Shown here piece by piece: positions 2,524-47,425 of a stretch of DNA of 64,000 nt (position 1 is its first letter; each line of letters starts with the position of its first letter). Origin of the DNA: a virus. The position numbers and the translations under genes were made by a program. Below the pieces are notes generated by a model, which saw only the letters and a list, made by a program, of their open reading frames with translations, searched no databases and was not told the DNA's origin. The stretch is from the IMG/VR virus record IMGVR_UViG_3300022074_000005. One strand, written 5' to 3'.

Positions 2524-3708
2524 TTATTCAAAATAATTTTCTAGTTTACCTGTTCTACTTAAATCTACTGAACAACAATGAGCACCACCAGACCATAAAA
2601 AGTTCCAACGATTAACCCAAGGTATCATTTCAATGTTATATTTTTTTAATTTATCAGCTAAGTTCTTATCATAACCAGAAGTGATAATAGTATTCTCATC
2701 TAAAGATAATACGTTACAATCAAATCTTGTCTCTTGAGCTATACCTAATAACTCTGGCATAGGATAGTTTTTTACACCTCTCTCTTCGCACAATGCTTTT
2801 ATAGTTTTACCATCATATTCTGCTGATGGGTCCATTATAATGATTTCCCAATTATTGTCAACCATTATTTTTGGTACGTATTCTTTTTTCCATGTTAATA
2901 CTAACCCTGGTCTTAATATTGCTATCTTACCATCTACATGTCCGTAAGCTTGCATCTGAACAAATTTGTGTTTAGGAAACTCCCTTTTGTACCATTCTAA
3001 CCCATTGTTAGTAATACATATTTGTGAATGTTCTTTTATACCTAATCTATCTTGAGGGTTTGCAAAAGTATGAAATATATGTTTTCCACATTTATAGAAA
3101 GCAGCTGTATCACCTATGATATTATTTTGATTATCATATGATTCTATCTGTTCATTGCAATATCTGTTTACTTCATCTATATCTGTTGTGACTTGTTGTG
3201 GTTTACTTTCATACATCATTGGTGGCATTGCAATGTATCTAGCACCATTCTTAAATTCATCTAACATTACTTTTTGATGATTTAAGTTTTCTAAACCTCT
3301 TTCTTTTTTAGCTGTGTAAACTTCGAATATGGTATTACCAATCTTTCCTATTGTATCTCTACATTGCATCGGGTGACTTAAACCATCTTCAATGTTAGGA
3401 ATAACATCTGGTCTTACAACTTCAGCACCATACTGTTGACACAACTTGGCAAGTAAATTTAAATCTTCATTTGTTTCATCATGTATTTTTTTTAAAGTAT
3501 CTTTGTATAATGGTAATTGTTCTTTGATATCTCTTTTATGATTAGTGTAATCTAGAGTATCATCAGCATATTCCACGCTTCTATTTCGTACTGTATTGTC
3601 GTACTCCATGAGAATCTTATTCTCAAATTCATCTTCTACTTTACTGACATCATAGGTTTTACCTATTAGGACTTTTTTAAGAGGTGTCCACTCATCATAA
3701 ACTGTCAT
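2524..3708 (-). CDS. Amidinotransferase (glycine / inosamine-phosphate amidinotransferase family)
   Basis: N-terminal VYDEWTPLKKVLIG, QCRD, GHVDG, C-terminal GGAHCC catalytic Cys motif of pentein amidinotransferases. Confidence 0.88.
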   Translation of the reverse strand: MTVYDEWTPLKKVLIGKTYDVSKVEDEFENKILMEYDNTVRNRSVEYADDTLDYTNHKRDIKEQLPLYKDTLKKIHDETNEDLNLLAKLCQQYGAEVVRPDVIPNIEDGLSHPMQCRDTIGKIGNTIFEVYTAKKERGLENLNHQKVMLDEFKNGARYIAMPPMMYESKPQQVTTDIDEVNRYCNEQIESYDNQNNIIGDTAAFYKCGKHIFHTFANPQDRLGIKEHSQICITNNGLEWYKREFPKHKFVQMQAYGHVDGKIAILRPGLVLTWKKEYVPKIMVDNNWEIIIMDPSAEYDGKTIKALCEERGVKNYPMPELLGIAQETRFDCNVLSLDENTIITSGYDKNLADKLKKYNIEMIPWVNRWNFLWSGGAHCCSVDLSRTGKLENYFE

Positions 3709-4445
3709 TTTATAAAAAACATATCACAACCAAAGTTATCTCTCTGTCGAGATAAACAAGCGTTGTATCCTTTCGATTTAAATTCATCTATAACTTCAAT
3801 CATATCAAACATTGCCTCATGAGGATTAGGACAATATAAATGAGCTCTAACATGAAAGCATTTAATTGGTATGTTGTTATCTAATATTTCTCGACAAGTA
3901 TCATACCATACTCCCCAAGTATCTGCTTTAATCAAATCAGGCATACCATGTTTTTTAATCATGGTACTTAAATTTTCTGTTTTAACCATAACATGTGATT
4001 GATTTTTATCTTCATAGATAGAGTCTATTGATTTAATAAAATGTGGTTTTAAATTATATTCTCTACCATACGGATTATCACCATATCCAAGTTCAGTTTC
4101 TAATAATGTTGGATTATAGTAAAATGGCATTTCACCATTTTCTTTTGCATAACAAACATTATGAAATTTCATTTGTGGTTTAAATGGCCAACTATCTTCT
4201 TTCCACCATTGTGCTGATTCAGGTGAACCATCAAAACAATGAAATTTTAAATTAGGATTATCTGTTGCCATAGCTATTTCCATGTCAACATCTTTTGATA
4301 CACCAATGCTATAGACTGTTGAATATTCTTTTATTTTATCAATAGGGAAACGATATCGACCATACTCTTCATATGGTGTATAGTCTAAATGTATTTCCTC
4401 TATTTTTCTTAATTGTGATTTAAGTTCCGATAGGTTTTGCATCAT
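3705..4445 (-). CDS. FkbM / Methyltransf_22-like SAM-dependent methyltransferase
   Basis: VYSIGVSKDVDME, HCFDGSP and LIKADTWG (variant of LKxDIEG). Confidence 0.7.
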   Translation of the reverse strand: MMQNLSELKSQLRKIEEIHLDYTPYEEYGRYRFPIDKIKEYSTVYSIGVSKDVDMEIAMATDNPNLKFHCFDGSPESAQWWKEDSWPFKPQMKFHNVCYAKENGEMPFYYNPTLLETELGYGDNPYGREYNLKPHFIKSIDSIYEDKNQSHVMVKTENLSTMIKKHGMPDLIKADTWGVWYDTCREILDNNIPIKCFHVRAHLYCPNPHEAMFDMIEVIDEFKSKGYNACLSRQRDNFGCDMFFIK

Positions 4446-4851
4446 TTTTCACTTCTTTAGTCTTTCCAATATTATATTTTGTTTCTAAATTCCACTCTGA
4501 TTTTTCTTTAAATGAAATAATTTTAATCTGACTTAATGGTGCGATAGGTTCTGTTGTACCTATAATTGATACTAAACCCCAATCGCTTAATAATGATGCT
4601 ATACGATTTCTACGACCTATATCATTTTCTGATAAGTTTGTTTCCTTACCATCTAATGCAAACAGCTCTTTGAAATGTACTATGTAATACTTACCTTGCT
4701 TGTGAAGTATATGACATGATTGATATAATTTTTTTTCTTTTCTTGATGCTACGCCGATACGTGAAAGTGTCTCTCTGACCTTAAGGAAATCGTCAGGTTG
4801 TTTTAGAGTCACTTCCAACATTTGCTCTCTTGACCATTTAACGTTTTCCAT
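4420..4851 (-). CDS. regA: RegA translational repressor
   Basis: DDFLKVRETLSRIGVAS, LYQSCHILHKQGKYYIVHFKELFALDG; likely start MENVKW at 4851. Confidence 0.97.
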   Translation of the reverse strand: MENVKWSREQMLEVTLKQPDDFLKVRETLSRIGVASRKEKKLYQSCHILHKQGKYYIVHFKELFALDGKETNLSENDIGRRNRIASLLSDWGLVSIIGTTEPIAPLSQIKIISFKEKSEWNLETKYNIGKTKEVKNDAKPIGT

Positions 4852-5233
4852 GTTTACCACCTTTATTCAACTTTTCTTTTATTTGTTTTATTTGTTCATC
4901 GTTTAATATGTTAAGAGCAGATTTTCCTTTTTCATTATTATAACCATAATACTCTTTTACATACTCTAAATTTTTGGACTTGCTTGACCTCATCCAAGGT
5001 GCAAACCTTCTACGTGTCCTTAAACTATTTAGTAAAAAATCATACTGAAGTTTCTTGTCTAGATGATGATTACGATTCATTTCATTTACTAACATGACCG
5101 TATCATTAAAAGGTGCTAGGCATTTATTAACAACATATGCTGGATACTTTTTTTCCCATGTGACATCACCACTATCCATAAGATTATTTTTTTCATAGTT
5201 TATACTATTAAGATATTCTTTCAATTCATACAT
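4838..5233 (-). CDS. gp62: Clamp loader small subunit (gp62)
   Basis: YLNSINY, NEMN, QYDFLLNSLR, VKEYYGY; position upstream of regA. Confidence 0.93.
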   Translation of the reverse strand: MYELKEYLNSINYEKNNLMDSGDVTWEKKYPAYVVNKCLAPFNDTVMLVNEMNRNHHLDKKLQYDFLLNSLRTRRRFAPWMRSSKSKNLEYVKEYYGYNNEKGKSALNILNDEQIKQIKEKLNKGGKHGKR

Positions 5234-5243
5234 AATTTAATCC

Positions 5244-6335
5244 TTAGTTATATACTATCTTACTATTGATAATATTTTTTATATATTCGCCACCATCTAA
5301 ATTAATATCTGGTATGTCTTGTTCTTTTATTTTATTTGTTTGTCTGATACCTTCAACAAGCATGTCGGCATCTAAATCATTATTTGTTAACCAATGGCAA
5401 CCACCAGCTTTAGAATATGCATCTGCTCTAAAAGGTTCCTCAGTTGCAATGATATTATTATTAACATCATACATTTCAGACGAAGTAGCTTCATTTGGTG
5501 TAACTAATGCTGGTGTTTTAGTTATATTTAAATCTGTAAAAGTCATATATCCTAACATTGTAAAAGCCATTTTATGTATTGATAGATAATCTCTAAATTC
5601 ATTTACACTAGGTCTTTCAATTAAATGTATGCCTCTATTCTCTGCCATAATTCTAATATCTTTTGGTGTCTTTGGTCCAACTATAAATGACATCTTTTGC
5701 CACATCATCTTTTCTTTAACTTGTAAAAACAATCTTTGATAATGATGAGTTAGTTCATACCAATCACCACCTGATACTAATATGCCATCTCTTTTATCTA
5801 TACTAGGTTTTTTATATGGAAGTGTAACATAACCTGTATTATGTATTTCACAATCTATCATTGGTGTTTCATGTAATTGTAAAGTTGCATCTATAAAATT
5901 ATCGTCACCTGCAAAAAATATGCCATCGTAAAATTCATTAAGTCTTTCAGTATAGAAATACATATCCTCTGGTTTAATCCAAGGTATGTCTCTATCTAAA
6001 GAATATATTCTTTTACCTGCTTCTTTTGCATGTTCTAATATATCAAGTATACCGCCATGTTCCCATAGTTCACCTCTTTGCTCTGTCCAAAAGGGGTCCC
6101 AACCATATCGACCAAAAGGATAACCCTCTGTAATAACTACATCTGGGTCATACTCTCTATAGTCTTGATATAGATCGTTATACTCTTTATCTTTACCAAA
6201 GAAGTCTATTGATTTTGATTTACCTGTAAAAGGTCGAGTTATGATAACTCTATCATTTAAATATTCGCCTAATGCGTTTGCTCTACTGATATGTCCATGA
6301 CCAGTATTACTTTGTACTAATATCAAACTCTTCAT
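5244..6335 (-). CDS. GT-B fold glycosyltransferase (COG4671 / GT28 C-terminal-like)
   Basis: GHGHISRA, PDVVITEGYPFGR, ILVSGG and MLGYMT motifs; likely start MKSLILV. Confidence 0.8.
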   Translation of the reverse strand: MKSLILVQSNTGHGHISRANALGEYLNDRVIITRPFTGKSKSIDFFGKDKEYNDLYQDYREYDPDVVITEGYPFGRYGWDPFWTEQRGELWEHGGILDILEHAKEAGKRIYSLDRDIPWIKPEDMYFYTERLNEFYDGIFFAGDDNFIDATLQLHETPMIDCEIHNTGYVTLPYKKPSIDKRDGILVSGGDWYELTHHYQRLFLQVKEKMMWQKMSFIVGPKTPKDIRIMAENRGIHLIERPSVNEFRDYLSIHKMAFTMLGYMTFTDLNITKTPALVTPNEATSSEMYDVNNNIIATEEPFRADAYSKAGGCHWLTNNDLDADMLVEGIRQTNKIKEQDIPDINLDGGEYIKNIINSKIVYN

Positions 6336-6963
6336 AACCAAACTTTTTATAGACAGGCAACTTATGAATATCTGGGTAGTAATCCCAATCTTTTTTCATA
6401 GGTTTTACGTCTTTCACTTTCTCAAAATTTTTTAATCCTATTTTTGCTTTGTGTGGTGTCATATAATAATGATAACCAAACACATCTATATGTTGTTCAT
6501 TCCATGGCACACTTGATCTTGTTCTACCATCGTAACACATTAACCTTAATAAATCAGCATCTTCTTTATTATCTAAAAGTATCATGCCACCTCTGTCTGT
6601 ACTTAAATGTTTTCTATAAAAAAAACTTAAACACATTCTGGTGCCAGGTTCGTAACCATTCTTTTTCCAATACACAGCTGCATCAATAGTTTCTTTTGTT
6701 AGATAATAATACTCATGCCAATGCACATCACCCCATTGAAACTTCCAACCATTTTTAATTAGCATGTTTGGAACTGAAACGTATGTGTGAAATGGAACTT
6801 TGATAGCACGAACTTCTTTACCTTGCTTTTGTTTTTCTAATCTTAAGCAAAGCTCTAAAGCATTTGTGCAACAATCTGTGGCAACCGCATATGGAGCACC
6901 AAAGAATTCTGCGACTTTGTTTTCAAACTCTGTGACGACATGCCACTCGTTTTTTTGCATCAT
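6307..6963 (-). CDS. Short DegT/DnrJ/EryC1/StrS-family PLP sugar aminotransferase
   Basis: FENKVAEFFGAPYAVATDCCTNAL, IDAA, SFFYRKHLSTDRGGMIL (PLP lysine), GYHYYM; 218 aa, lacks the usual C-terminal domain. Confidence 0.85.
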   Translation of the reverse strand: MMQKNEWHVVTEFENKVAEFFGAPYAVATDCCTNALELCLRLEKQKQGKEVRAIKVPFHTYVSVPNMLIKNGWKFQWGDVHWHEYYYLTKETIDAAVYWKKNGYEPGTRMCLSFFYRKHLSTDRGGMILLDNKEDADLLRLMCYDGRTRSSVPWNEQHIDVFGYHYYMTPHKAKIGLKNFEKVKDVKPMKKDWDYYPDIHKLPVYKKFGYEEFDISTK

Positions 6964-6971
6964 AGACTCAT

Positions 6972-6979
6972 TATTTATC
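6972..6979 (-). promoter_or_regulatory. Possible late promoter variant GATAAATA upstream of the aminotransferase
   Basis: Occupies the 16-bp gp44/DegT gap; the same variant lies upstream of gp13 (44903-44910). Confidence 0.4.
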
Positions 6980-7915
6980 TTATTTAAACTTTACTTGAGA
7001 CATTAATTCAGTCATACAAGCCAACATGTTTATTTCTTGATCTGCTACAAATGCAGATTTGTATTGATAATCTGCAATAATAACAACTGCATGTGGTATT
7101 GTGCTATGGTCTAAATTGTCATATAAAGAATTATAAATTGTTCTAAAAATTCTTGATGGGTCATTATCTAAATTATTAACAATCCATTTACGAACATTGG
7201 TAAACTCTTTTGCTTTTAAAAAACCTGTAAGCTCTTTTATGTTTTCGCTTGAAAGATTTACAAGTATACCTGCATCTATTTGACCAGAAGAAGAATATCT
7301 TTGTAATTCATTTAAACATCTTCGCCAATCGGGAAAATACTTATTAATTAATTCAGCAATAGCTTTAGGTTCAAACTTAATTTGTTCTTTGTTAAGAATA
7401 TCTTGTACTCTTTCAAAGAATAATTTAGCAAGTTTTATTCTTTCACCGTTTCTTATTGTAAAATCAATATTAGAACATCTAGATTGTAAAGGTTCAATTA
7501 ATCTATTCTTATAATTACATGTTAATATAAAACCACAGTTCTTATGAAACTCTTCCATAAATCCACGTAAGGCAGGCTGAGTTGATTGAGGATTAAGATA
7601 ATCTGCCTCGTCTAGTATAATATACTTTCTACCACCTTCTAGCGATACAGTTGATGCAAAGTTTTTAATTTTAGTTCTTAGTACATCAATACCAGATTCC
7701 TCTGAACCATTAATTAACATCCACGTAGAACCAATCTCTTCTACCATTGCTTTTGCAATAGTAGTTTTGCCAGTTCCAGCAGACCCAGATAATATAAGAT
7801 TAGGTATATGTTGATCTTTTACAAACTCTGTAAAAGTTTTCTTTAGTTCAGTAGGTAATATACATTCATCTACTGTCTTTGGTCGATACTTCTCGACCCA
7901 TAGAAATGTTTCCAT
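6980..7915 (-). CDS. gp44: Clamp loader large subunit (gp44)
   Basis: LWVEKYRP, Walker A GSAGTGKT, Walker B ILDEAD, SRC motif. Confidence 0.97.
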   Translation of the reverse strand: METFLWVEKYRPKTVDECILPTELKKTFTEFVKDQHIPNLILSGSAGTGKTTIAKAMVEEIGSTWMLINGSEESGIDVLRTKIKNFASTVSLEGGRKYIILDEADYLNPQSTQPALRGFMEEFHKNCGFILTCNYKNRLIEPLQSRCSNIDFTIRNGERIKLAKLFFERVQDILNKEQIKFEPKAIAELINKYFPDWRRCLNELQRYSSSGQIDAGILVNLSSENIKELTGFLKAKEFTNVRKWIVNNLDNDPSRIFRTIYNSLYDNLDHSTIPHAVVIIADYQYKSAFVADQEINMLACMTELMSQVKFK

Positions 7916-7917
7916 AA

Positions 7918-9696: not shown

Positions 9697-10125
9697 TTAC
9701 TTAACAGTAATTTGTTTTAATTTCATTGCCTCTGGTATAATTTTTTCCATAGACACTTTTAAAAGACCGTCTTTTAATTCAGCCCCATTTACTTTTACAT
9801 CTTTTGCAATTGTAAATTGTTTTTTAAAGTATCTTTTAGATATACCTTTATACAATGCACCATCATTATCTTCAACTTCTTTTTCGTCTTTTGTTTTGAT
9901 AGACTCGATGGTTAATATACCATTCTCTACTTCAACTGATATATCTTTTTTGTTGAAACCAGCTAGTGCGATTTCTACATTGTAACTATTCTTATCAGTT
10001 TTTACTATATTGTATGGTGGATAGTTATTTGGTGCCATACTTACCATTGAATCGAAATGATCGAACATGTCGTCAAATCCTATTGAGAATGGTCTTAATT
10101 GATTGAATATGCTTAGATTGGTCAT
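9697..10125 (-). CDS. hsp20: Small heat shock protein Hsp20
   Basis: IGFDDMF, YPPYNI, EIALAGF, YKGISKRYF and LKDGLLKV of the IbpA/alpha-crystallin family. Confidence 0.96.
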   Translation of the reverse strand: MTNLSIFNQLRPFSIGFDDMFDHFDSMVSMAPNNYPPYNIVKTDKNSYNVEIALAGFNKKDISVEVENGILTIESIKTKDEKEVEDNDGALYKGISKRYFKKQFTIAKDVKVNGAELKDGLLKVSMEKIIPEAMKLKQITVK

Positions 10126-10188: not shown

Positions 10189-10224
10189 TATTTATATAGG
10201 GATTGACCTTCAAAAGTCAACCCC
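10189..10224 (-). promoter_or_regulatory. Composite hsp20 promoter: RpoH-like GTTGAC-N15-CCTATAT overlapping late TATAAATA, within an inverted repeat
   Basis: Minus strand reads GGGGTTGACTTTTGAAGGTCAATCCCTATATAAATA. Confidence 0.55.
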
Positions 10225-13945: not shown

Positions 13946-14656
13946 TTATATCGTAAATGCAAGTAAATTGGATGCTATATAAGTATGTGCTTTTTCACTT
14001 GGGTGACCATCATCTTCCGATATCCACCATCCTTTTTTACCATACTCTTTATTCAATATATCTTGAATATTAAACCCTCCTATTTCAGATATACATGGCC
14101 ACCCATAAAAATCTTTAATCTTATCCGTTAACATATGATTAATAATTTCTTTTGATAGCACAACTTTTGATTGTGTTTTAAAATCATTCGAAAAGTGTTT
14201 TATATGATTACCTGTAAGCAAAGGCATTGCTTGACAAAATGTGTAGTTAATAAAGTTATCTCTACATATAGATTGCATAGCATATATGTAATTTAAATTA
14301 TTATTAATTATTTGTTTTAAATTAGGAAAGTCTTGACTTAAAAATTCATTGTAAAGTTTATTTGCTTTTTCATAGGTGTAATCGTAATCGTTAGTTGTAA
14401 CACTTATTGTTTTCCAATCGGGTTGTGTAAGAAAGTCTTGTCTATCAAATGCAGTCCACATTATATAAACATGTTCTACTTTATTAAGATTGTTTTGTAT
14501 TGCTTGTAAAGTATTATGAAATATTGCTCGATTACCATAACCTGCTTTCGCTGTATTAATGACTTCACATTTTTTTATCTCACCAAGTATTGTTGGCCAT
14601 ACTTTGAAATCATAATAACTTTTATCTGTATAACTACATCCACCTACTATAATCAT
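13946..14656 (-). CDS. SGNH/GDSL-like hydrolase or acyltransferase, paralog 1
   Basis: GGCSYT block I, G-x-GN block II, DGHP block V. Confidence 0.75.
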   Translation of the reverse strand: MIIVGGCSYTDKSYYDFKVWPTILGEIKKCEVINTAKAGYGNRAIFHNTLQAIQNNLNKVEHVYIMWTAFDRQDFLTQPDWKTISVTTNDYDYTYEKANKLYNEFLSQDFPNLKQIINNNLNYIYAMQSICRDNFINYTFCQAMPLLTGNHIKHFSNDFKTQSKVVLSKEIINHMLTDKIKDFYGWPCISEIGGFNIQDILNKEYGKKGWWISEDDGHPSEKAHTYIASNLLAFTI

Positions 14657-15747
14657 GAATTAAACCATTTCTCTATGTCTTTTTTTAAATCTTTTAATTT
14701 TGATTTTCTGTTAATAAAATTATTGTAATTATATTCTAATATATCTAAATTATCTAACACCAACTTTTTTAAATTTTTTGTTCTTAGTTCTTTTACTAAT
14801 TCTACAACAGCATTTATTCTATCGTCAAAATTGTAAATATTATCATATGACTCATCCCATAAATTATTAAATGTTTTATATCCTTGCTGTTTTAAAACTT
14901 TTAATGAGTATTGTGTTCCTACTAAAATAAATGGCATTTTTAACATTATTGCTTTATAAGTTTTTTCAGTTATATTAATACCATTATTAGTATTATCAAT
15001 ACTATGACAAACACTCTCTGTTACAATATTAATACAGTTTTCTCTTGACCAATATGATAAGTCATTGTCTTTAGATGCAAACCCATTATCAATTCTTTGT
15101 TTAAATTTTACATCATAGACTAAATCATAAACTCCATTATTAATACTAGCATTAAAATCCTCTATCATTGGCATCACCTTATACATAAACATACTTTTAG
15201 ATTTTGCAATAGTATTTGAATGTGATCTATTAAGACATAAAAATTTTTTAGGATTATCATCTAATACTTTTACTATTTCTGGTTGATTATGATTTTGTAC
15301 ATACTTTTCAAATATATCCCAATGGTAAGTTTTAATAACATTACTTTTGTATGGTTCACATAAAATATTGTACTTTGAGATAAGTATTTTACATTTATTA
15401 GGTTTTATCCCAGCTTCATTTAATAAAAGAGGATATGTATCAATCCAATTACCACCTGACAAATCAATTTCAGAATCATTAATTATATAAAAACATTTAT
15501 CATTATTAATATCATCTTTTACTTTATCTGGTAATAACTTAAATTCATTGTTTTGTATAATATCATGACTATACTTTCTTACATTATCATAGTAAATATA
15601 TTTTCCTTTAACTTTATCTAAAGTTGTTACAGGATAACCTAATTCTTTATGTAAAGGAATCCAATGATCGCTTACATCACTAAAAAGTCTGTTTTCTTTT
15701 TTTGAGTAAAAATTACGTAAAGATTTATTTTTGAATGCTATAATCAT
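14653..15747 (-). CDS. Putative glycosyltransferase (GT10-like C-terminal region, phage family)
   Basis: KFLCLNR, NIVTES, ITEKTYKAI, PFILVG, GYKTF and WDESYD motifs. Confidence 0.55.
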   Translation of the reverse strand: MIIAFKNKSLRNFYSKKENRLFSDVSDHWIPLHKELGYPVTTLDKVKGKYIYYDNVRKYSHDIIQNNEFKLLPDKVKDDINNDKCFYIINDSEIDLSGGNWIDTYPLLLNEAGIKPNKCKILISKYNILCEPYKSNVIKTYHWDIFEKYVQNHNQPEIVKVLDDNPKKFLCLNRSHSNTIAKSKSMFMYKVMPMIEDFNASINNGVYDLVYDVKFKQRIDNGFASKDNDLSYWSRENCINIVTESVCHSIDNTNNGINITEKTYKAIMLKMPFILVGTQYSLKVLKQQGYKTFNNLWDESYDNIYNFDDRINAVVELVKELRTKNLKKLVLDNLDILEYNYNNFINRKSKLKDLKKDIEKWFNS

Positions 15748-17852: not shown

Positions 17853-18127
17853 TTGTTTACCTTACAATTAAACTGACATATATCTATTGGGTCTTCAAAA
17901 CTTTTTGGTAAATCTTTTTGAAACCAATCTTTGTGTGTAATATTTTTTATACTATCATTTTCTAAATTATATCTATCTTTGTTATCATGATACTTTGTCA
18001 ATAGTTGATGTTTTGCTTTATTTGGTTTACCATATTGATCACTAGCAAGATAACAACAAGGCCAAACTTGACCATCTGGGTTTATCATAGTTTTAGTTGT
18101 GCCTTCCAAAAATTTACACTTTATCAT
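17849..18127 (-). CDS. Stand-alone SPASM/twitch Fe-S domain
   Basis: KC...INPDGQVWPCCY...ICQFNC; own GAGG SD. Confidence 0.75.
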   Translation of the reverse strand: MIKCKFLEGTTKTMINPDGQVWPCCYLASDQYGKPNKAKHQLLTKYHDNKDRYNLENDSIKNITHKDWFQKDLPKSFEDPIDICQFNCKVNK

Positions 18128-20706: not shown

Positions 20707-20948
20707 GCTAACCAATTCCAAACTGCTCTTAATGACAAGAGCAAATACATACCTTCCATTAATGCTCTAGGTATGTCTTTATCTTTTATTGCAAATCTAA
20801 TCCACATGCCACAAGATACACATGCTATCGCCCAACCCATCCATTGTGTATCAACATCTGCATTACTTAAAACAAAACAACCAGTCATTGCGATTAAAAA
20901 TCCTAACCAACGTCCAGCATTCAAATCTTTATAATATCTTATTTTCAT
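20703..20948 (-). CDS. Small 3-TM membrane protein (weak PnuC half-transporter resemblance)
   Basis: 81 aa, three hydrophobic helices, C-terminal WNW; ATGA overlaps on both sides. Confidence 0.6.
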   Translation of the reverse strand: MKIRYYKDLNAGRWLGFLIAMTGCFVLSNADVDTQWMGWAIACVSCGMWIRFAIKDKDIPRALMEGMYLLLSLRAVWNWLA

Positions 20949-38418: not shown

Positions 38419-40049
38419 TACCAATCTGTATCCTTATCTCTAACAACTGGTGACCATCTAGTACCATATTCATCTACTGATTCTCCTATCTCTTCATTAC
38501 CATCTAATATAAAACCAAATGGTGTCATATCTTGCTCTATTCTATCTTGATTATCTGCATACATTCTTTTTCTAATATCTTGATCTGTTAACTCTTTAAA
38601 ATATCTTTGATCTGTTGCCCAGGAAAATAAAACTAAACACATTACTAAATCATCATTGCTACCTTCCTCTGCTTGAAATTGATTACCACGAACTATGTAA
38701 GTTGATAATTCATTTATTATATCAAAATCATCTACGAGTAGTTTATCTGTTTCTAATAATTGTTTTAAGTTAGAACATCCTACTTTTTTAACTGACTTTG
38801 TTGTTCTTACACCTAATTGTGCTTTACCACCAGAAAATCCACTACCCATAACTTGACCAGCACGTCCTCTCATATAACACATAATTATATTATCATATTC
38901 TAAATCAAAATGTAAGTTGTTTGATACTTGCTCTCCTATATCATTTACTTCAACTAAAACATATGCATGATTATATGCCCTAGCAACATGATGTATTTTA
39001 TGTGGAAATAATAAAGGTTTTATTTCGTTATCTTTAAATGATGCAACTACTTTATATGGTATTTCTGAAACATCAATAACAGTAAATGCTGATGCATCGT
39101 TTTTAGTTCCACGTGCAACGTCAGCTGTTACAACATAAGTGTGATCTTTTTTAGGATTTTCATAAACATTTAATCCCTCATGTTTTACAATAGGTTCTTT
39201 GTAAGTCATTTGTCTTAATTTTGCAGAGTTAACAAGTGTATTAGTAGAACCTAAAAACTCACATTCAAACTCTGTTTGGAATTGTTGTTCACTTGTATTT
39301 GAGATAGTTTCTTGTTTCCATTTTTCATCTCTACCTGGTACTTCCGACCAATGTACTTCTATAGGTACATAAGTGTTTCTTTTATATTGTGCATCATTCC
39401 ATAATTTATAGAACATATTCATACCATGTGGTGTAGATACAATAATTACTTTTGTTGTTTTACCAGAAGAGATTGTAGGATAAACTGAACTAAAAAATTG
39501 TTCAGCAACATTTGATGGTACATATGCAAACTCATCAAGAAATATTATATTGTATGAACCTCCTCTAACTGCTGATGCTGATGTAGATGATGCTAGTATT
39601 TTACTTCCATTTTCTAATTCTAAACTTCCTTTGTTCCATGACATTACTCCTTGTTGTAACCATTTAGGTAAGTTTTCGTATGCGAGTTGTAATCTACCTA
39701 ATAAGTCTCTAGCAGTTGCAGCTTTGTTTGCAAGTATCGCTATGTTAACACTAGGATTAAATAATGCATAATGTAAAAGATAAGCAATCATAACAGTTGA
39801 TTTACCTGATTGTCTAGGAAGTTTGCAAATAGTAAATCTATTACTATGAAAAGTACCAATCATTTCTTTTTGGAAATTATAAGGTTTAAACTTGACTAAT
39901 CCCTCGTCAAGTGATATAATCTTTATGTAGTTCGTGATAAAGTATAAAGGGTCATTCATACATTTTTGATATTCTTCAATCTCAGCTTGTGACCACTCTT
40001 TAGGTTGATTAGCTTTTTTTAGATTTGGATTACCTAGATAACTTTCCAT
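38418..40049 (-). CDS. gp17: Terminase large subunit (gp17)
   Basis: YLGNPNLK, PRQSGKS, FLDEFA, STPHG, ADVARG, DDLVM. Confidence 0.98.
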   Translation of the reverse strand: MESYLGNPNLKKANQPKEWSQAEIEEYQKCMNDPLYFITNYIKIISLDEGLVKFKPYNFQKEMIGTFHSNRFTICKLPRQSGKSTVMIAYLLHYALFNPSVNIAILANKAATARDLLGRLQLAYENLPKWLQQGVMSWNKGSLELENGSKILASSTSASAVRGGSYNIIFLDEFAYVPSNVAEQFFSSVYPTISSGKTTKVIIVSTPHGMNMFYKLWNDAQYKRNTYVPIEVHWSEVPGRDEKWKQETISNTSEQQFQTEFECEFLGSTNTLVNSAKLRQMTYKEPIVKHEGLNVYENPKKDHTYVVTADVARGTKNDASAFTVIDVSEIPYKVVASFKDNEIKPLLFPHKIHHVARAYNHAYVLVEVNDIGEQVSNNLHFDLEYDNIIMCYMRGRAGQVMGSGFSGGKAQLGVRTTKSVKKVGCSNLKQLLETDKLLVDDFDIINELSTYIVRGNQFQAEEGSNDDLVMCLVLFSWATDQRYFKELTDQDIRKRMYADNQDRIEQDMTPFGFILDGNEEIGESVDEYGTRWSPVVRDKDTDW

Positions 40050-41001
40050 TTACATAAACCTCTTTATATCTATTTGTGTTTTTCATTTTAGAAGAACATT
40101 TTGATTTACAAAAATCTGGCACATCGCCATTTGTAATTTTATCAAAAAAATCTTTCCATGCTTTACTATTTACTATATCTTTTACTTTATTATTATTTAG
40201 ATTGTTGCTAGCATCTAATAATGGTTCATATCTTTTATCAACTTGTTCACTATGTAATACGTCTGCATCTAACCAACAACACGGTAATACTTGTTTTGTT
40301 GTTGATACGTATGGCAATCTTTCTTGAGTCATGTATGTATCATCTAACATACTTAAACACTTTGGTCTAAACTCTTCTTTTTCTTTCTCTATTTTTTCTT
40401 TGAATTTTTTATTTTTTGGTTCTAAAAAATCATTAGTTCTACCAGAGTAATTTAATTCTAAAGTAACTCCAATATCTTTTGCCATTTGTATTGCTTGTGT
40501 TATCTTATCTTCATTATAACTAAAAACAATATATTGCCATTTACAATCTATACCCATTTCACTAGCAGTTTTCATTACTTCAAATAATTTTTCACCATCT
40601 TGATTTTGTCTGTAAACAAAACTTTGATATGGAAGACCATCTATACCAAAACGCCATTCTGCTTTTGGATGAGCTCTAAATGCATCAATATAAAACTCTA
40701 TAGGTTTTTGTGAGGCTGCATTACTAATAGATACATGAACATTTTTAGAACATGCAATACGAAGCATTTCAATTAGATTAGGATTAAATATAGGGTCACC
40801 AAATGTACCATTAAGAGTTAATGCTGAAAAGTGATCAGTTAAGTCTTTCCATTCATCAATTGTTAAATCGCCACCAGGTATATCTTTAGTTTTGTAATCC
40901 CAAATAGAACGAGCACATTGAGAACATTGCAATGTACATTTATTTGTAATATCTAAATCTAAACCTCTATTTTTAAAACCATCATTTTTATAATCAATCA
41001 T
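40030..41001 (-). CDS. Radical SAM/SPASM(twitch) enzyme between gp16 and gp17
   Basis: ITNKCTLQCSQC, FGIDG, WQYIVF, PKC...PCCW...CKSKC. Confidence 0.88.
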   Translation of the reverse strand: MIDYKNDGFKNRGLDLDITNKCTLQCSQCARSIWDYKTKDIPGGDLTIDEWKDLTDHFSALTLNGTFGDPIFNPNLIEMLRIACSKNVHVSISNAASQKPIEFYIDAFRAHPKAEWRFGIDGLPYQSFVYRQNQDGEKLFEVMKTASEMGIDCKWQYIVFSYNEDKITQAIQMAKDIGVTLELNYSGRTNDFLEPKNKKFKEKIEKEKEEFRPKCLSMLDDTYMTQERLPYVSTTKQVLPCCWLDADVLHSEQVDKRYEPLLDASNNLNNNKVKDIVNSKAWKDFFDKITNGDVPDFCKSKCSSKMKNTNRYKEVYVNGKLSR

Positions 41002-41404
41002 CCTTTTTCTTTTTCAATAGTTTTTGTAGTTCGGCTGTTGAACCTACATACAAAGCATTAGTTACATTTTTGGGAGCATTGTTAGGAACTTCTTTTAATT
41101 TTTTCATCTTCTCTTGTAGATCACCAAGTTTTTCTGTTACCTCAGAAACTTGTTTAATTAAATTACCAGCAACTTCGTATGCTCTTGGATGGTCAGAGTT
41201 TTGAGCAATATCTAATATTCCTTGTATTGCGTCTTGTCCTCTTTCAACTAAATTGTAAAAATTTTCTCTTTGATACTTGTAATCAGAATCTATATCTTCA
41301 TCTTCTTTTGGTCTAGGAATAACTTTTTTAGGTTCTGATTTTATAAGTTCTTTATCTTTAACACCTAAAGCATCGTTTATTATTTCATCTATTTTATCAG
41401 CCAT
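40994..41404 (-). CDS. gp16: Terminase small subunit (gp16)
   Basis: DYKYQREN, HPRAYEVAG, NALYVGSTAELQK. Confidence 0.95.
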   Translation of the reverse strand: MADKIDEIINDALGVKDKELIKSEPKKVIPRPKEDEDIDSDYKYQRENFYNLVERGQDAIQGILDIAQNSDHPRAYEVAGNLIKQVSEVTEKLGDLQEKMKKLKEVPNNAPKNVTNALYVGSTAELQKLLKKKKDD

Positions 41405-42254
41405 TTAAAAAATACCTTTTCATTTTTGCATCGTCTTGATCAAGATTTATACCACATCGCTTTCTGCAAACTTCTGGTGGATTAGTTTTTAATTTATTAT
41501 TAAATGTTTTCCACGTATTAGAGTTTACTATTTCTTTAACAGTATTTATTTTCAAATTTAAAGTACTATCATATAATTCTGAAACTTGTTGTTTATGTGA
41601 GTCTAACCAACAACATGGTAATACATTACCACCAGCTGCATAATACATATTTGTTTTATTCTCTAAACATCTTGGTCTTATTTTAGGTGACATGTTATAT
41701 TTTAATTTTACATTCTTACCCTCAGCATCGGTATTTGTTTCTAACAACTGTAATCTTATATCATGATCTTTAGCTAATTTATATGCATCTAATTGATATT
41801 TCTCATTGTAAGGAAAAACTATATACTGCCACTCTACATCTATACCAAGTTTTTTTGCATCTAACATTCTTTGAAATAAAAACTCACCATCTTGATTTTT
41901 TCTATATTGATGTGATTGATGAGGTAGACCATCAATTCCAAAAACCCAATGAGCATGTAAGTTTGATTGAAACGCTTCATCATATACACTTTTCTTTTTA
42001 TGATTGGCTGCGTTATGAATACGAACATGTTTTTTTCGTATGTAACATAGTTTTAGTAATTGATTTAGTTTTGTGTGATAGATTGGGTCTGATTGACCAC
42101 CACACATATCTATGATATCAAACTCATCAAGAATTTTTTCAAACTCGTCTATTGTTATTTCACTTTTAACAATAGTATAGTTTTCATCTTGACGATTACA
42201 ACCACCACATTTAAGAGTACACTTATGTGTTATATCTAAATTTATTTCTTTCAT
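41397..42254 (-). CDS. Radical SAM/SPASM(twitch) enzyme between gp15 and gp16
   Basis: ITHKCTLKCGGC, FGIDGLP, WQYIVF, PRC...PCCW...CRKRC; paralog of 40030..41001. Confidence 0.88.
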   Translation of the reverse strand: MKEINLDITHKCTLKCGGCNRQDENYTIVKSEITIDEFEKILDEFDIIDMCGGQSDPIYHTKLNQLLKLCYIRKKHVRIHNAANHKKKSVYDEAFQSNLHAHWVFGIDGLPHQSHQYRKNQDGEFLFQRMLDAKKLGIDVEWQYIVFPYNEKYQLDAYKLAKDHDIRLQLLETNTDAEGKNVKLKYNMSPKIRPRCLENKTNMYYAAGGNVLPCCWLDSHKQQVSELYDSTLNLKINTVKEIVNSNTWKTFNNKLKTNPPEVCRKRCGINLDQDDAKMKRYFLNG

Positions 42255-42274
42255 TAAAAATCATTGTATAATTA

Positions 42275-43051: not shown

Positions 43052-43060
43052 TTTCTATTC

Positions 43061-44068: not shown

Positions 44069-44072
44069 GACG

Positions 44073-44885
44073 TTAACCCTTCATTATTAGATCGGGGTAT
44101 TGCATGTTTTGTATTTGTTCTTCTAGTCTAGTTATTTCTTCTTGAGCTTGAGTAAATATTTGTTCACCATTCATAGTGACACCACCTAACATTTGAACCT
44201 CATTGAACTTAGACAAGTTTTGACCCCATTGTTTTTTTATTAATGCAGTTGCATATCTTTTAAGATGCATATCGTTAAATAAATCTGTATATGTGGCAGG
44301 GTCAAGCTTTCTATAACATTCAATAATTAAATAATCATTTTCGCTTATGTCATTTGTCCAATCCATATCAATATATAATCTTCTTTGATGTTCATAAAAT
44401 CTTAATGGACTTTCGCCTACCAATAAATGTGACAAGTAATCTAAATGTTGCATTGTCATTTCGTAATGTATAATACTTGTTGAAGAAAAATCATACAGGT
44501 CATTCAATCTTAATTGATATCTTATATCAAACATATTATTAGTAGCTGCGTTATCAAAACTAAAAATGTTTAGTACTGAAACTACTGAGTCAGGCATAGG
44601 GATGAAGTTTTTACCTTCTTGAAAAGATGCTGTGATTGAACTATCTGCAACGTCTGTCGCAGTTGTAGTTATATTTTCACTACCTCTAGTTATGTCTGCT
44701 GATGTAATTTTATATTTAAGATACATCTTCTCAATACCATCGTAATAGTAATGAGAAAAATATTGTAGTGCTTCGTCTAATCTATCGTCTGCTTGATCGT
44801 CTGTTATATTGATTTGTACAGCACCTTTACCTAAATTTCTTAGGCAATATTCTTTTAATGTACTCTTTGAATTTGGAATGGCCAT
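44073..44885 (-). CDS. gp13: Neck protein (gp13)
   Basis: LKEYCLRNLG, YATALIKKQWGQNLSKF, GGVTMNG. Confidence 0.95.
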   Translation of the reverse strand: MAIPNSKSTLKEYCLRNLGKGAVQINITDDQADDRLDEALQYFSHYYYDGIEKMYLKYKITSADITRGSENITTTATDVADSSITASFQEGKNFIPMPDSVVSVLNIFSFDNAATNNMFDIRYQLRLNDLYDFSSTSIIHYEMTMQHLDYLSHLLVGESPLRFYEHQRRLYIDMDWTNDISENDYLIIECYRKLDPATYTDLFNDMHLKRYATALIKKQWGQNLSKFNEVQMLGGVTMNGEQIFTQAQEEITRLEEQIQNMQYPDLIMKG

Positions 44886-45663
44886 GTATTTTTCCTTTTA
44901 AGTATTTATCTAAATCCCTTTTTGGTCGCCATCCCAAAGATAATATGTCCTTGATATTTGCAGTATTATCAAGACTTTCGCCACTATGACCTTCTTTTGT
45001 TGGTATATTTTTAAAGTATTTATCGACCAATTCGTTTACTTTTATGCCTTTTCCACTTGCAATTTCATATGTGTGTTGTGTCCAATCCATATAAAACTCT
45101 TTTCTATATATCAACAATTTTATCGCATCAACAACATCTAACACATGTATAAAATCTCTAGTGTGTTCAGTCTTGTATTCTAGTGTTCCGTCAATCATCT
45201 TTTGAGTTAACATAGTAGGTCTACAACCATCACCAAAAACATTTGTAAATCTTAATCCTATATGTTTACCTGTTGCTTTTGCTACAGCTTCCATTGCTTT
45301 TTTAGAACCTGCATATGGGTTCTTCCACCAATAATGTGCGTTTGATGATGACGCATAAACACATGGTGTTTTATTTTCAGCACACAATTTAAACAAATTT
45401 GTTGACCATTCAACATTTGTTTCGTACCATTTATCTGGGTTATCAAAAGATTTACGTACATCTGCTAGAGCTGCCAAATGTACAACTCTGTCAACATCTT
45501 CTAACGTTTCTTTTGTAATATCTTTAAAGTTTCTAATCGCAGGTTGTCCTAATTCATTTCTACCATGCAAATCCCACTTTGAAACTTCGTGGCCATCTAA
45601 TTCTAACTCTTCGACAAGATTACGACCTATAAATCCTTGAGAGCCAGTTACTAATATTTTCAT
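44827..45663 (-). CDS. NAD-dependent NDP-sugar epimerase/dehydratase (extended SDR)
   Basis: VTGSQGFIG, HLAA, YASSS, YAGSK (YxxxK), GLRFTNVFG, RDFIHV; 59-bp overlap with gp13. Confidence 0.92.
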   Translation of the reverse strand: MKILVTGSQGFIGRNLVEELELDGHEVSKWDLHGRNELGQPAIRNFKDITKETLEDVDRVVHLAALADVRKSFDNPDKWYETNVEWSTNLFKLCAENKTPCVYASSSNAHYWWKNPYAGSKKAMEAVAKATGKHIGLRFTNVFGDGCRPTMLTQKMIDGTLEYKTEHTRDFIHVLDVVDAIKLLIYRKEFYMDWTQHTYEIASGKGIKVNELVDKYFKNIPTKEGHSGESLDNTANIKDILSLGWRPKRDLDKYLKGKIHGHSKFKEYIKRILPKKFR

Positions 45664-45691
45664 TGACAATTCCTATATAAATATCTATAAT
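45663..45691 (+). promoter_or_regulatory. Perfect sigma70 promoter with a late promoter nested in its spacer
   Basis: TTGACA (45663-68)-N17-TATAAT (45686-91); TATAAATA at 45676-83. Confidence 0.85.
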
Positions 45692-45700
45692 GTTATGTAC

Positions 45701-45730
45701 ATATTAACAAATTGAAGGTGATTATGTCAA
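45701..45730 (-). promoter_or_regulatory. Opposing sigma70-type promoter for the SDR gene
   Basis: TTGACA (45725-30)-N18-TAATAT (45701-06) with extended -10 TG. Confidence 0.5.
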
Positions 45731-46605
45731 GGGTTATTTACTCAATATATATCGATATTCCTAAAGAAAAATTAGACTTACACGATACACACATTCTTAA
45801 AAAGAACGAAACGCCAATGAATCTTAAAATGAAACAGGCGTTTATAGATCACTATGATTGGCTCGTAGAAACGAAAAAACGCTATGCAGACAAGATAGGT
45901 GCAGATTTTCAAATGTATGAATACGATGAAGATTACATTAAGTTTCATGAAGAGTACTCAAAAAAATATCCATTTCTTACAGATTATAATATAGTAAACA
46001 AATATAAATTACATATTTTAGATAGACTTGTTAATTACAAAGATGAAGTACTATATCTAGACTTTGATGCTATACCGACTACTAACGAATCCTTTTTTGA
46101 TGTATGGGATTTAAATAAGGGTATTACCATATTACATAACAACGATAAGATAAGAGACCCAGGGCAACATATACATCGTATCAATGGCACTATTCGTTCA
46201 CCGTCAGCAAAATATTTTAATGCAATGGCAATGTTAGAAGAGACAGATAATAAACCTCAATGTGATGTAGTAAATACTGCTATCATTGGTGCAACAAAAG
46301 AACATTGGAAAAAGTTAAAATACTTTGATGATTTAAAACAATCATTTGATTTAATGACATATTTAAAAAGTGATGAGTATCAATCTATGTATCCACCAAA
46401 TATAACTAAAACATTTGGATATGACAATGAAACTATATTTACATATAAGTTAGTTGCAAATAATGTATCAGTACAATGGTTAGATTATCAATGGCATTTC
46501 TTTTATGATAATAATAGAGGTATTCCTCAAGACGCAAAAATAGTACATGCAATAAACAAAGAATTTGAAAGAGTAAAACAATTTTATGAAAAACTTAATC
46601 TTTAG
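45724..46605 (+). CDS. GT-A fold glycosyltransferase (GT8/GT34-like), paralog 1
   Basis: YADKIGADF, VLYLDFD (DxD), NTAIIG, DNE, QW, KIVH; start MSRVIYS. Confidence 0.75.
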   Translation: MSRVIYSIYIDIPKEKLDLHDTHILKKNETPMNLKMKQAFIDHYDWLVETKKRYADKIGADFQMYEYDEDYIKFHEEYSKKYPFLTDYNIVNKYKLHILDRLVNYKDEVLYLDFDAIPTTNESFFDVWDLNKGITILHNNDKIRDPGQHIHRINGTIRSPSAKYFNAMAMLEETDNKPQCDVVNTAIIGATKEHWKKLKYFDDLKQSFDLMTYLKSDEYQSMYPPNITKTFGYDNETIFTYKLVANNVSVQWLDYQWHFFYDNNRGIPQDAKIVHAINKEFERVKQFYEKLNL

Positions 46606-47425
46606 TATCTGGCGACCTGCAAAGATAGAAAAAAACTTTGAGGACAGACGAACATACGTAAACAATCAATTAGAAAAATACTTTGATAAATTAGTTGATA
46701 ATAAAAAATTATATGCAGATAAGATAGGTGCAGAGTTTAAATTATTAGAACCAGAGAGTGATCTTTATGATAATATGAACTTTGAAAAACTATTTTTACT
46801 TGATAAGTTTGCATATGATTATGATAATGTTTTGTATCTAGATTTAGATGTTATTGCTAACACTACTAAAAGTTTTTTCGATAAGTTTGATATGAATACT
46901 TTGATATGTAGATATGAACCATGTACCAGATATGATAGAATGGGATTACATGCTTTGTTAGACACGATGGTTAATGATAGTGAAGAGAGAAGAAAGTATA
47001 TTCAACATCTAAAACAAAAAGGTGAGTTTGTAAAATTTGCTAGGGAATATATTGATAAACACTTTGAAGAAGCGTGGTCTAAACTAGACAAGTACCATTG
47101 GATGAAAAAAGGTCAAGAAGTACAAAAGATAATACCAGATGGTGAACATTGGATTTTCAATACAGGTATTACTGGTGGAGGTTCTGATATAATAAAAAAA
47201 TTAAATATTCATAAACACTACGAAGAGTTTAAGAAACTTGATGTACAACAAAATAATGAAGTATTTTTAACTTGGTTAGTAAAGAAAGAAAAGTTTCCTC
47301 TTACTCAACTACCTGAATGGTGGCATTACAATTGTTTAAAATCAGATAATAAGATTGCCAATGCATGTATGTGGCATGTAACAGATAAAAACTTTGAGAG
47401 AGTTTTTAGGCTTGTGAACTTTTAA
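46586..47425 (+). CDS. GT-A fold glycosyltransferase (GT8/GT34-like), paralog 2
   Basis: YADKIGAEF, VLYLDLD (DxD), FNTGITG, NNE, WWH, WHV. Confidence 0.75.
   Translation: MKNLIFSIWRPAKIEKNFEDRRTYVNNQLEKYFDKLVDNKKLYADKIGAEFKLLEPESDLYDNMNFEKLFLLDKFAYDYDNVLYLDLDVIANTTKSFFDKFDMNTLICRYEPCTRYDRMGLHALLDTMVNDSEERRKYIQHLKQKGEFVKFAREYIDKHFEEAWSKLDKYHWMKKGQEVQKIIPDGEHWIFNTGITGGGSDIIKKLNIHKHYEEFKKLDVQQNNEVFLTWLVKKEKFPLTQLPEWWHYNCLKSDNKIANACMWHVTDKNFERVFRLVNF

Follow-up and report, generated by a model that had tools for sequence, protein, structure and literature searches.

Dispersed genes of a predicted nucleotide-sugar tailoring toolkit in a T4-like pelagimyophage

The genome recorded in IMG/VR as IMGVR_UViG_3300022074_000005 raises the question of whether sugar- and radical-chemistry genes that lie scattered among the core genes of a T4-like phage could form one pathway and, if so, which glycan that pathway would modify. 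We analyzed a 64-kb stretch of this genome (here called the window), which corresponds to positions 72,056-136,055 of a 144,688-bp Joint Genome Institute (JGI) metagenome contig and belongs to a 144.7-kb uncultured T4-like pelagimyophage, a virus of SAR11 bacteria. The window has a GC content of ~30%, carries its genes almost all on the minus strand, and has Pelagibacter phages HTVC008M and Mosig and Methylophilales phage Melnitz as its closest deposited relatives. Pfam searches identified a T4-type core (regA, gp62, gp44, gp45, a cobS-like gene, gp46, gp47, UvsW, UvsY, gp23-gp13, and gp8). An initial annotation of the sequence had listed about 17 sugar-related genes in eight junctions between core genes, and the Pfam map of the window places ~18 accessory open reading frames (ORFs) for sugar or radical chemistry in the same eight junctions. 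When each ORF was searched by profile or structure, as that annotation had proposed, 10 were assigned by significant hidden Markov model (HMM) or Protein Data Bank (PDB) matches: an amidinotransferase, a DegT protein, a DesII-like enzyme, a carbamoyltransferase, a radical S-adenosylmethionine (SAM) ORF and SPASM ORF that form one split enzyme, two radical SAM proteins flanking gp16, a short-chain dehydrogenase/reductase (SDR), and a Methyltransf_24 protein. Four more (a GT-B glycosyltransferase [GT], an FkbM-type protein, and two GT8-like proteins) have indirect assignments, and four (two SGNH-like proteins, o364, and o211) have weak ones.

We group most of these predicted enzymes into three cassettes. 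Cassette A, spread over the gp44-gp62, gp3-uvsY, and regA-gp43 junctions, would comprise a minimal DegT aminotransferase-like protein (mini-DegT), the GT-B enzyme, the DesII-like enzyme, the amidinotransferase, and the FkbM protein. In cassette B, at gp46-cobT, we place the split radical SAM/SPASM enzyme, the carbamoyltransferase, the probable transferase o364, and the two SGNH-like proteins. Cassette C, which lies upstream of gp13, would comprise a nucleoside diphosphate (NDP)-sugar epimerase and a pair of GT8-like transferases preceded by a late promoter. On balance, we think it probable that the cassettes represent a recurrent nucleotide-sugar tailoring toolkit, split among hot-spot junctions and acting on an envelope glycan of the SAR11 host.

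A DesII-like enzyme paired with a minimal DegT protein

The gp3-uvsY junction holds a gene (26805-27887, minus strand) for a DesII-type radical SAM enzyme that resembles NDP-4-amino-4,6-dideoxyhexose deaminases/dehydrogenases (TIGR04426, 4e-64). Authentic DesII was the sole solved relative in a PDB search (8hzv, 5e-46), and the alignment covers DesII residues 105-464, so the six-helix N-terminal domain of DesII is absent from the phage enzyme. The structure paper names the residues and motifs of DesII and reports that a D456A variant is inactive while E408A/Q variants are active (PMC11434129). In the phage enzyme, C52/C56/C59 (CX3CX2C), GGLE93-96, R144/S146/Y148, and D220, the equivalent of DesII D323, which represent the cluster, GGE, ribose, and beta6 motifs, are invariant in eight phage and two SAR11 homologs, and D342, the equivalent of the essential D456, is likewise invariant. 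Phage E299, the equivalent of E408, is Gly in 2 of the 10 homologs, which agrees with the activity of the E408A/Q variants of DesII. These matches bear out, as DesII-like, the gene that had been annotated as DesII at this junction. We found no homolog of the protein among 50,697 deposited phage genomes.

The gp44-gp62 junction encodes a 218-aa protein (6307-6963, minus strand) that resembles pyridoxal phosphate (PLP)-dependent sugar aminotransferases (PF01041, 1e-22; 81 bits versus a gathering cut-off of 19.8). Its best solved matches are GDP-perosamine synthases, with whose motifs SFFYRK118, containing the PLP lysine, and ID94AA, containing the Asp for the pyridine nitrogen, align; both are invariant among homologs. 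Compared to complete fold-type I enzymes (~360 to 400 aa), the protein is missing an internal segment (reference residues ~94-162) and the entire C-terminal domain. This short length is kept family-wide: a search of the family profile against 1.84 billion representatives gave 112 clusters at an E value of ≤1e-30, most of them 190 to 260 aa long, with ~20 longer forms. We considered whether the gene is a frameshifted full-length degT and rejected this, since no C-terminal DegT segment occurs in any frame of positions 5200-7000 and the short form is conserved. The DegT family membership given in the initial annotation stands, in a 218-aa minimal version. Because the DesII residues are conserved in the phage enzyme, the DesII-like and mini-DegT proteins plausibly carry out, to judge from their sequences, DesI/DesII-type C4 amination and then radical deamination or oxidation.

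We compared the cassettes among relatives with gp44 identity of at least 85%. About 12 divergent contigs have the order gp44, mini-DegT, GT-B, DesII-like, gp62, regA, amidinotransferase, and gp43, and in the T4-like contigs L003-L005 the DesII-like and mini-DegT genes are adjacent and lie upstream of the gp61 primase gene. In the window the pair is split, with the DesII-like gene in gp3-uvsY and mini-DegT in gp44-gp62, and the window's DesII-like copy is nearer (70 to 80%) to the copies in L003-L005. Mini-DegT adjoins the DesII-like gene or shares its junction in every assessable phage contig other than the window itself. Given the gp44-gp62, gp61-upstream, and split arrangements, the pair is found at three insertion sites. 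The gp44-gp62 junction also varies in other ways; in L012 (693-1541) and G004 (L026:8469-9216), it holds ~750 to 850 bp of other cargo, either between mini-DegT and the GT-B gene or replacing both.

Genes that occupy different junctions in the window are joined in other genomes. Mini-DegT is fused to a C-terminal o364-like domain in four clusters (P0061, 2e-24; P0168, 2e-18; P0208, 4e-10; and P0072), and the family HMM backs this at 7e-35 and 1e-12. Another cluster, P0198, is a fusion of a GT-B protein (Glycos_transf_1), an FkbM domain, and mini-DegT, and a further mini-DegT family member, P0096, has an SDR on one side and DXD glycosyltransferases on the other. In another T4-like phage (L242), a mini-DegT-o364 fusion is followed by an SGNH-like ORF (family HMM, 1e-4) between gp47 and gp46; in L243 and L244, genes for a full-length amidinotransferase homolog (3e-24) and a UDP-sugar dehydrogenase come directly after the fusion. 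The L243 cluster also contains, as a single 423-aa ORF, a homolog of the radical SAM/SPASM enzyme that is split in the window (35% identity, 2e-25), two more radical SAM genes, a Methyltransf_24 gene, and a sugar nucleotidyltransferase/isomerase. ORF302-310 of cyanophage S-SCSM2R include mini-DegT (44% identity), a radical SAM protein, an amidinotransferase, and five GTs, and in a GT-rich cluster of a Flavobacterium phage, mini-DegT lies two genes from an epimerase that is 33% identical to the SDR of the window. These fusions and compact clusters tie together the genes at regA-gp43, gp44-gp62, gp46-cobT, and gp3-uvsY, with a looser tie to the gene upstream of gp13. The single pathway proposed in the initial annotation is thus supported for about two-thirds of the genes, including most of those on the replication side, by the fusions, the clusters, and the moving pair, and it is not supported for the radical SAM genes beside gp16.

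Other genes at the eight junctions

The GT-B protein of cassette A (365 aa; 5244-6341, minus strand) is GT1/GT28-like and also lies in gp44-gp62. PF04101 is found on its 42%-identical homologs and not on the window protein itself. An AlphaFold2 model (predicted local distance difference test [pLDDT] score of 79) gave CalG3 (1e-10) and MurG (2.5e-10) as the best Foldseek matches, followed by CalG1 and SpnP, a comparison that is unable to separate DNA glucosyltransferases from other GT-B enzymes. Since UDP-GlcNAc 2-epimerases have the same fold, the protein is best described as a putative transferase. It has no homolog among the 50,697 deposited phage genomes.

At regA-gp43, a gene at positions 2524-3708 (minus strand) encodes a pentein-fold amidinotransferase of the StrB1/AGAT/HsvA/SxtG type. 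There was no match to the Pfam model on the window protein; a phmmer search of the PDB matched StrB1 (1bwd, 1e-12), HsvA (5wpi, 4e-12), AGAT (8e-8), and SxtG, and the catalytic triad Asp200/His257/Cys378 is invariant in eight homologs, in line with the StrB1-type enzyme annotated there. HsvA, which we take to be a polyamine amidinotransferase, scores nearly as well as StrB1, so a non-sugar acceptor is possible. Distant homologs of the protein (23 to 26% identity) adjoin radical SAM genes in the T4-like Campylobacter phages CP220 and CPt10 and their relatives, where the pairing of these two enzyme types thus recurs. The amidinotransferase ORF overlaps by 4 bp an ORF for a predicted FkbM-type (Methyltransf_21) methyltransferase (246 aa; 3705-4445, minus strand), which scored 0.97 to 0.98 to PF05050 clusters in the ESM Atlas. 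The FkbM gene is absent from L009 and L010.

All genes of cassette B are on the minus strand. The split enzyme consists of a radical SAM core ORF (248 aa; 18114-18860; PF04055) and a SPASM-domain ORF (92 aa; 17849-18127; PF13186, 1e-6), and the split is kept in relatives. The adjacent carbamoyltransferase is of the NodU/CmcH type (443 aa; 16521-17852; Carbam_trans_C, PF16861, 1e-46; Carbam_trans_N, PF02543, 1e-38; NodU, 1e-32) and is shorter than NodU (~556 aa), with a reduced N-domain that covers profile positions 111-219 of 346. Homologs with 71 to 72% identity sit at the same position in G002-G005, and in L075 (7983-9307) the gene is in two pieces, a 294-aa call and a remainder detected by tblastn, which reflects either a frameshift or an assembly error. 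The two SGNH-like paralogs, o283 (15725-16576) and o236 (13946-14656), are weakly assigned from the blocks GGCS, G(Y/F)GN, and D(G/T)HP, spotted by eye, and, for o236, a Lipase_GDSL match below the cut-off (E = 0.005); o283 is kept beside the carbamoyltransferase in G002-G005. Between them, o364 (14653-15747) is possibly a GT10-like transferase and is the domain found fused to mini-DegT elsewhere. Its ESM Atlas lead to GT10 scored 0.80 to 0.81, its AlphaFold2 model has a pLDDT of 41, and its KKFLCLN and ITEKTYKA motifs are reminiscent of GT10 at most; the protein has no Pfam match, a family profile found none in the PDB, and its paralogs also lack a Pfam match. Of the gene set previously annotated here, the split radical SAM enzyme and the carbamoyltransferase are backed by Pfam, while the SGNH and GT10-like labels are tentative. 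The conserved order of the cassette is gp46, radical SAM, SPASM, carbamoyltransferase, SGNH, o364 (one to three copies), often a UDP-Glc/GDP-Man dehydrogenase, and cobT, and it is kept as a block in G002-G005 and L075.

The SDR of cassette C (SDR280; 44827-45669, minus strand) is an extended SDR that overlaps the start of gp13 (PF01370, 4e-25). NDP-hexose 4,6-dehydratases (DesIV/RmlB/GMD) carry T-D-E or T-x-E acid-base residues ahead of the YxxxK motif. SDR280 instead has the GalE-type active-site sequence ASSSN...YAGSK without these residues, its best NCBIfam matches are epimerases, and its homologs are named UDP-glucose or UDP-glucuronate 4-epimerase. It therefore looks like an epimerase and is not demonstrably the 4,6-dehydratase that it had been taken for, and the proposed succession of DesIV, DesI, and DesII steps is not supported, since the window has no DesV or DesVI equivalent either. 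We rejected a TDP-desosamine pathway for the same reasons; only DesI-like, DesII-like, and GT1-like proteins are present in the window. A 99% identical copy of SDR280 is labeled "MAG: Alphaproteobacteria bacterium TMED194" at NCBI, and its protein cluster (P0012) includes a 143-kb contig that is probably a phage mis-binned as a bacterium.

Two paralogous GT8-like GT-A genes follow on the plus strand (45712-46605 and 46586-47425), with the motifs LYLDFD and LYLDLD, respectively. PF01501 was sub-threshold on their homologs (2e-3 and 4e-4, respectively) and gave no match on the window proteins. The two genes, the SDR, and gp13 are kept together in 13 of 13 loci found with the SDR. An exact TATAAATA late promoter box lies at 45676-45683, ahead of the first GT8-like gene, and other exact boxes lie ahead of gp3, gp22, gp18, a fiber gene, gp8, and hsp20 (10189-10196). 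The total number of boxes in the window is not above chance (10 versus 14), so that they are meaningful only where directly upstream of late genes, and a scan of the window found no exact box inside cassette A or B. A sigma-70 and terminator scan was not above expectation (135 versus 121.5 ± 10.5 in shuffled sequence), and no early or middle promoters were assigned. The GT8/SDR cassette is flanked by a fiber-like protein with an Mtd N-terminal domain (49143-50426) and a 2,121-aa DUF4815 protein (51245-57610), which places it at the edge of a fiber-side hypervariable region.

The remaining accessory genes are less closely connected. At uvsY-uvsW, the annotated methyltransferase proved to be a Methyltransf_24/TylF-like SAM methyltransferase (25909-26430, minus strand; PF13578, 4e-13), which is present in L075 and absent from G002 and whose one link to the toolkit is that a member of its Pfam family occurs in the L243 cluster. 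In gp3-uvsY, o211 (27844-28479, minus strand) had been called methyltransferase-like, a label that found no match in Pfam, PHROGs, NCBIfam, or the PDB; its homologs lie at other junctions in L058, L060, and L075, and it is absent from G002. The two gp16-flanking paralogs, a radical SAM/twitch protein in gp16-gp17 (40030-41001, minus strand; PF04055 and NF033640) and a radical SAM/SPASM protein in gp15-gp16 (41397-42254, minus strand; PF04055 and PF13186), do belong to the radical SAM families assigned to them, and their membership in the pathway is not supported, given their independent gain and loss: relatives have them at both junctions, at either, in tandem, or at none, even where cassette C is kept. 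In loci sampled with gp15, a radical SAM gene occurs in gp15-gp16 in 10 of 70, in gp16-gp17 in 10 of 56, and the SDR occurs upstream of gp13 in 8 of 31. Among 18 fully assessable loci, 5 of 6 with the SDR had a radical SAM gene, compared to 1 of 12 without it; this co-occurrence tracks gp15 identity, and we set it aside as functional evidence. We found no fusion or cluster in other genomes that links the gp16-flanking genes or o211 to the toolkit, and these genes are probably outside it.

Hot-spot junctions, acceptor, and competing explanations

The eight junctions are generic insertion hot-spots. Phage HTVC008M shares the core order of the window but none of its cargo; the junctions are filled with 2-oxoglutarate (2OG)-Fe(II) oxygenases, a tryptophan halogenase, and a ferrochelatase. 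In a sample of 70 T4-like marine loci probed with gp44 (59 to 80% identity), the cargo of the window was found in none; the gp44-gp62 junction was empty (≤15 bp) in 25 and held 66 to 3,097 bp of other DNA in 45. Because the same junctions carry unrelated cargo or none elsewhere, the scattering of the genes reflects T4-like genome architecture and not the pathway. Other cargo flanks core genes in the window as well, including a peptide deformylase (22520-23182), Hsp20 (9697-10125), and, at gp46-gp47, an MT-A70-family (N6-adenine) methyltransferase (20945-21484) and an 81-aa ORF; this last junction holds the mini-DegT-o364 fusion in L242 and a 2OG-Fe(II) oxygenase in HTVC008M. Beyond the left end of the window, after gp43 (L079:12828-15477), lie an Asn-synthase-like PP-loop protein, a C5 DNA methylase, and a SAM methyltransferase (Methyltransf_11/12/25/31 matches). 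This trio, which could be a DNA-modification cassette, is kept in relatives, some of which add a radical SAM/SPASM gene.

From the observed family assignments, conserved catalytic residues, and gene linkage, we infer the following substrates and order of steps. A host-made NDP-4-keto-6-deoxyhexose would be aminated at C4 by mini-DegT, and the DesII-like enzyme would then deaminate or oxidize the aminated sugar to a 3-keto-4,6-dideoxy sugar; in an alternative branch, the amidinotransferase would turn the amine into a guanidino group. The GT-B enzyme, o364, or both would transfer the sugar, after which the glycan may receive methyl and carbamoyl groups and be (de)acylated. The sugar could possibly derive from GDP-mannose, as mini-DegT best matches GDP-perosamine synthases and a glycan island of the host carries a GDP-mannose-dehydratase-type gene.

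That island is one of two in which we found full-length DesII-like genes (503 to 505 aa, 34 to 36% identity), in a scan of one genome per species, in the Pelagibacteraceae single-amplified genomes AG-470-M04 and AG-897-G09 (L081:9719-11230 and L082:9689-11206). Both genes sit in low-GC (23 to 24%) surface-glycan islands that hold GT4s, a GDP-mannose-4,6-dehydratase-type SDR, an SDR280-like epimerase, an ATP-binding cassette (ABC) exporter, a GT61, a UDP-sugar dehydrogenase, a GFO/IDH/MocA oxidoreductase, and an RfaE-like gene, and the HMM of the window's Methyltransf_24 family matches an island ORF at 3e-7. The substrate of the SAR11 enzymes may differ from that of DesII. Since these host genes sit in envelope-glycan islands, the acceptor is most likely an envelope glycan of the infected SAR11 cell, with the virion second, and since an island carries a GDP-mannose-4,6-dehydratase-type SDR, the host could supply the missing 4-keto-6-deoxy precursor. 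An envelope acceptor agrees with the published view of pelagimyophage sugar genes (PMC7029224).

Several points weigh against a toolkit that tailors the host envelope. Every enzyme activity in it is predicted. The DesII-like enzyme scores 217 bits, under the NCBIfam equivalog cut-off of 450, and lacks the N-terminal domain, and mini-DegT is ~150 residues shorter than a normal DegT protein, so that its aminotransferase activity is putative. A search of the window and ~15 kb beyond its two ends, with ~64 kb of the genome outside it, revealed neither a 4,6-dehydratase nor a nucleotidyltransferase. Neither SAR11 DesII-like gene has an adjacent DegT gene. Among relatives, L032-34 have the GT-B and amidinotransferase genes with no DegT or DesII-like gene in gp44-gp62, and G004 has cassette B and the amidinotransferase with no cassette A there. 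Co-occurrence of the cassettes is also confounded by shared ancestry, as all the cassettes occur in one subclade.

The same toolkit could instead decorate capsid, neck, or fiber proteins, with a glycan that shields or tunes the particle. The initial annotation preferred such a virion acceptor, and the exact TATAAATA box ahead of the GT8 pair beside the fiber genes, together with the overlap of the SDR with gp13, fits it. However, of the ~18 accessory ORFs only the GT8 pair is behind a late box; cassettes A and B, the core of the set, lie in the replication-gene region without one, related host genes lie in envelope-glycan islands, and we know of no virion glycan in any T4-like marine phage. 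Virion glycosylation by phage GTs is established for mycobacteriophages (Freeman et al. 2023, PMC10527164, as cited in PMC12801897), and a paralog of the S-SCSM2R amidinotransferase, ORF266, was detected in the virion proteome, although the authors of that study consider it carry-over (PMC12801897). We regard a virion acceptor as unlikely, and more so the reading in which the genes are unrelated hot-spot cargo, each with its own role and no common pathway. The junction contents of HTVC008M and the gp44-probed loci described above are what unrelated cargo would produce, the gp16-flanking radical SAM genes, o211, FkbM, and Methyltransf_24 do vary among relatives, and carbamoyltransferases occur in 143 phages without cassette A. 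Yet unrelated cargo would hardly account for the fusions of mini-DegT to o364 or to GT-B and FkbM, for the compact grouping of these families in phages unrelated to this one, or for the joint shift of the DesII-like/mini-DegT pair among three sites.

Attachment of the sugar to phage DNA as a hypermodification is very improbable. T4 glucosylates hydroxymethylcytosine with GT-B enzymes, a DNA alpha-glucosyltransferase is among the viral GT-B fold matches, cassette A lies within the replisome operon, the pair in L003-L005 sits beside primase and ribonucleotide reductase genes, and gp43 is followed by the possible DNA-modification trio described above. Position is uninformative, however, as the junctions are generic hot-spots; the best GT-B folds are GT1 natural-product GTs and MurG and not T4 DNA glucosyltransferases, mini-DegT relatives elsewhere lie in GT-rich glycan clusters, and the window showed neither a hydroxymethylase nor a TET-like gene. 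We give slightly less credence still to synthesis of a diffusible small molecule resembling an aminoglycoside or macrolide sugar. The StrB1-like, DesII, NodU/TobZ-like, and CalG/SpnP-like GT1 families all belong to antibiotic sugar tailoring, and antibiotic synthesis has been proposed for the S-SCSM2R genes (PMC12801897), but the window's genes include none for aglycone or cyclitol biosynthesis, export, or resistance, and the host homologs lie in surface-glycan islands with a polysaccharide-typical ABC exporter.

Relation to known systems and implications

The closest biochemical parallel is the DesI/DesII pair of TDP-desosamine synthesis in Streptomyces venezuelae (8HZV, PMC11434129), where genes for a DegT-family aminotransferase and a radical SAM enzyme of the DesII type likewise form a pair. 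The window has a truncated DesII-like enzyme, a 218-aa DegT, an amidinotransferase, and a carbamoyltransferase; of the other desosamine steps (DesIII/IV for activation and dehydration, DesV as 3-aminotransferase, DesVI as N,N-dimethyltransferase, and DesVII/VIII for transfer), it has a GT1-like transferase but no equivalent of the 4,6-dehydratase DesIV, of DesV, or of DesVI. Among solved structures, StrB1 of streptomycin synthesis (PDB 1BWD) comes closest to the phage amidinotransferase, with ~25% identity and the same Asp-His-Cys triad. Among phages, the T4-like marine phage S-SCSM2R has a mini-DegT that is 44% identical over its full length, adjoins a radical SAM gene, and is near an amidinotransferase. 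In contrast to the window, its set is compact among five GTs, its radical SAM protein is not DesII-like, and its amidinotransferase is only 23% identical to that of the window; the genes were called antibiotic synthesis genes and were not analyzed as a sugar pathway (PMC12801897, 2025). Lipopolysaccharide (LPS)/O-chain-type genes of pelagimyophages and cyanomyophages have been read as modifying the host surface, as we propose for this toolkit, and a 2020 study described dispersed LPS-type genes and radical SAM cassettes in pelagimyophages, listing as sugar genes rfaE, UDP-glucose dehydrogenase, and GTs only (PMC7029224); the DesII-like/mini-DegT pair, the amidinotransferase, the carbamoyltransferase block, and the fusions are not described there. 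The Pelagibacteraceae islands share with the phage set the DesII-like, SDR280-like epimerase, UDP-sugar dehydrogenase, and Methyltransf_24-like families, but they lack an adjacent mini-DegT, amidinotransferase, or carbamoyltransferase and instead have GT4s, an ABC exporter, and a GDP-Man-dehydratase-type SDR.

Thus, dispersed sugar genes in pelagimyophages (2020) and the DegT-like/radical SAM/amidinotransferase trio of one cyanophage (2025) were already published. This analysis adds the occurrence in phages of a DesII-type enzyme that moves as a pair with a minimal DegT, the size of the mini-DegT family and the fusions within it, the link between cassettes of different junctions, and the DesII-like genes in SAR11 glycan islands. 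More tentatively, marine T4-like phages may have a new route to a guanidino (N-amidino) and/or 4-deoxygenated amino-hexose that is placed on the SAR11 envelope or the virion, built by mini-DegT, the truncated DesII-type enzyme, and the StrB1-like amidinotransferase. The fusions found in nature suggest that mini-DegT would in this case work only when joined by a partner, either o364 or a GT; we hold this combined proposal to be possible but doubtful. Mini-DegT, which recurs in fusions with transferase and methyltransferase domains, offers a specific and testable case of what may be a new minimal aminotransferase architecture. A pathway split over core-gene junctions can also be reassembled through fusions and compact clusters in other genomes, and cluster-finding tools are expected to miss such cases.

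Few biological entities in the sea are as abundant as SAR11 bacteria and their phages, whose contest is thought to be fought mainly over cell-surface glycans. If the toolkit makes an unusual deoxy, amino, or guanidino sugar, it would show that phages import radical SAM deoxysugar chemistry, so far known from the synthesis of antibiotics, and use it on a glycan that they remodel in the infection, and a new sugar on the SAR11 envelope or the virion would change phage-host recognition in the most abundant marine bacteria.

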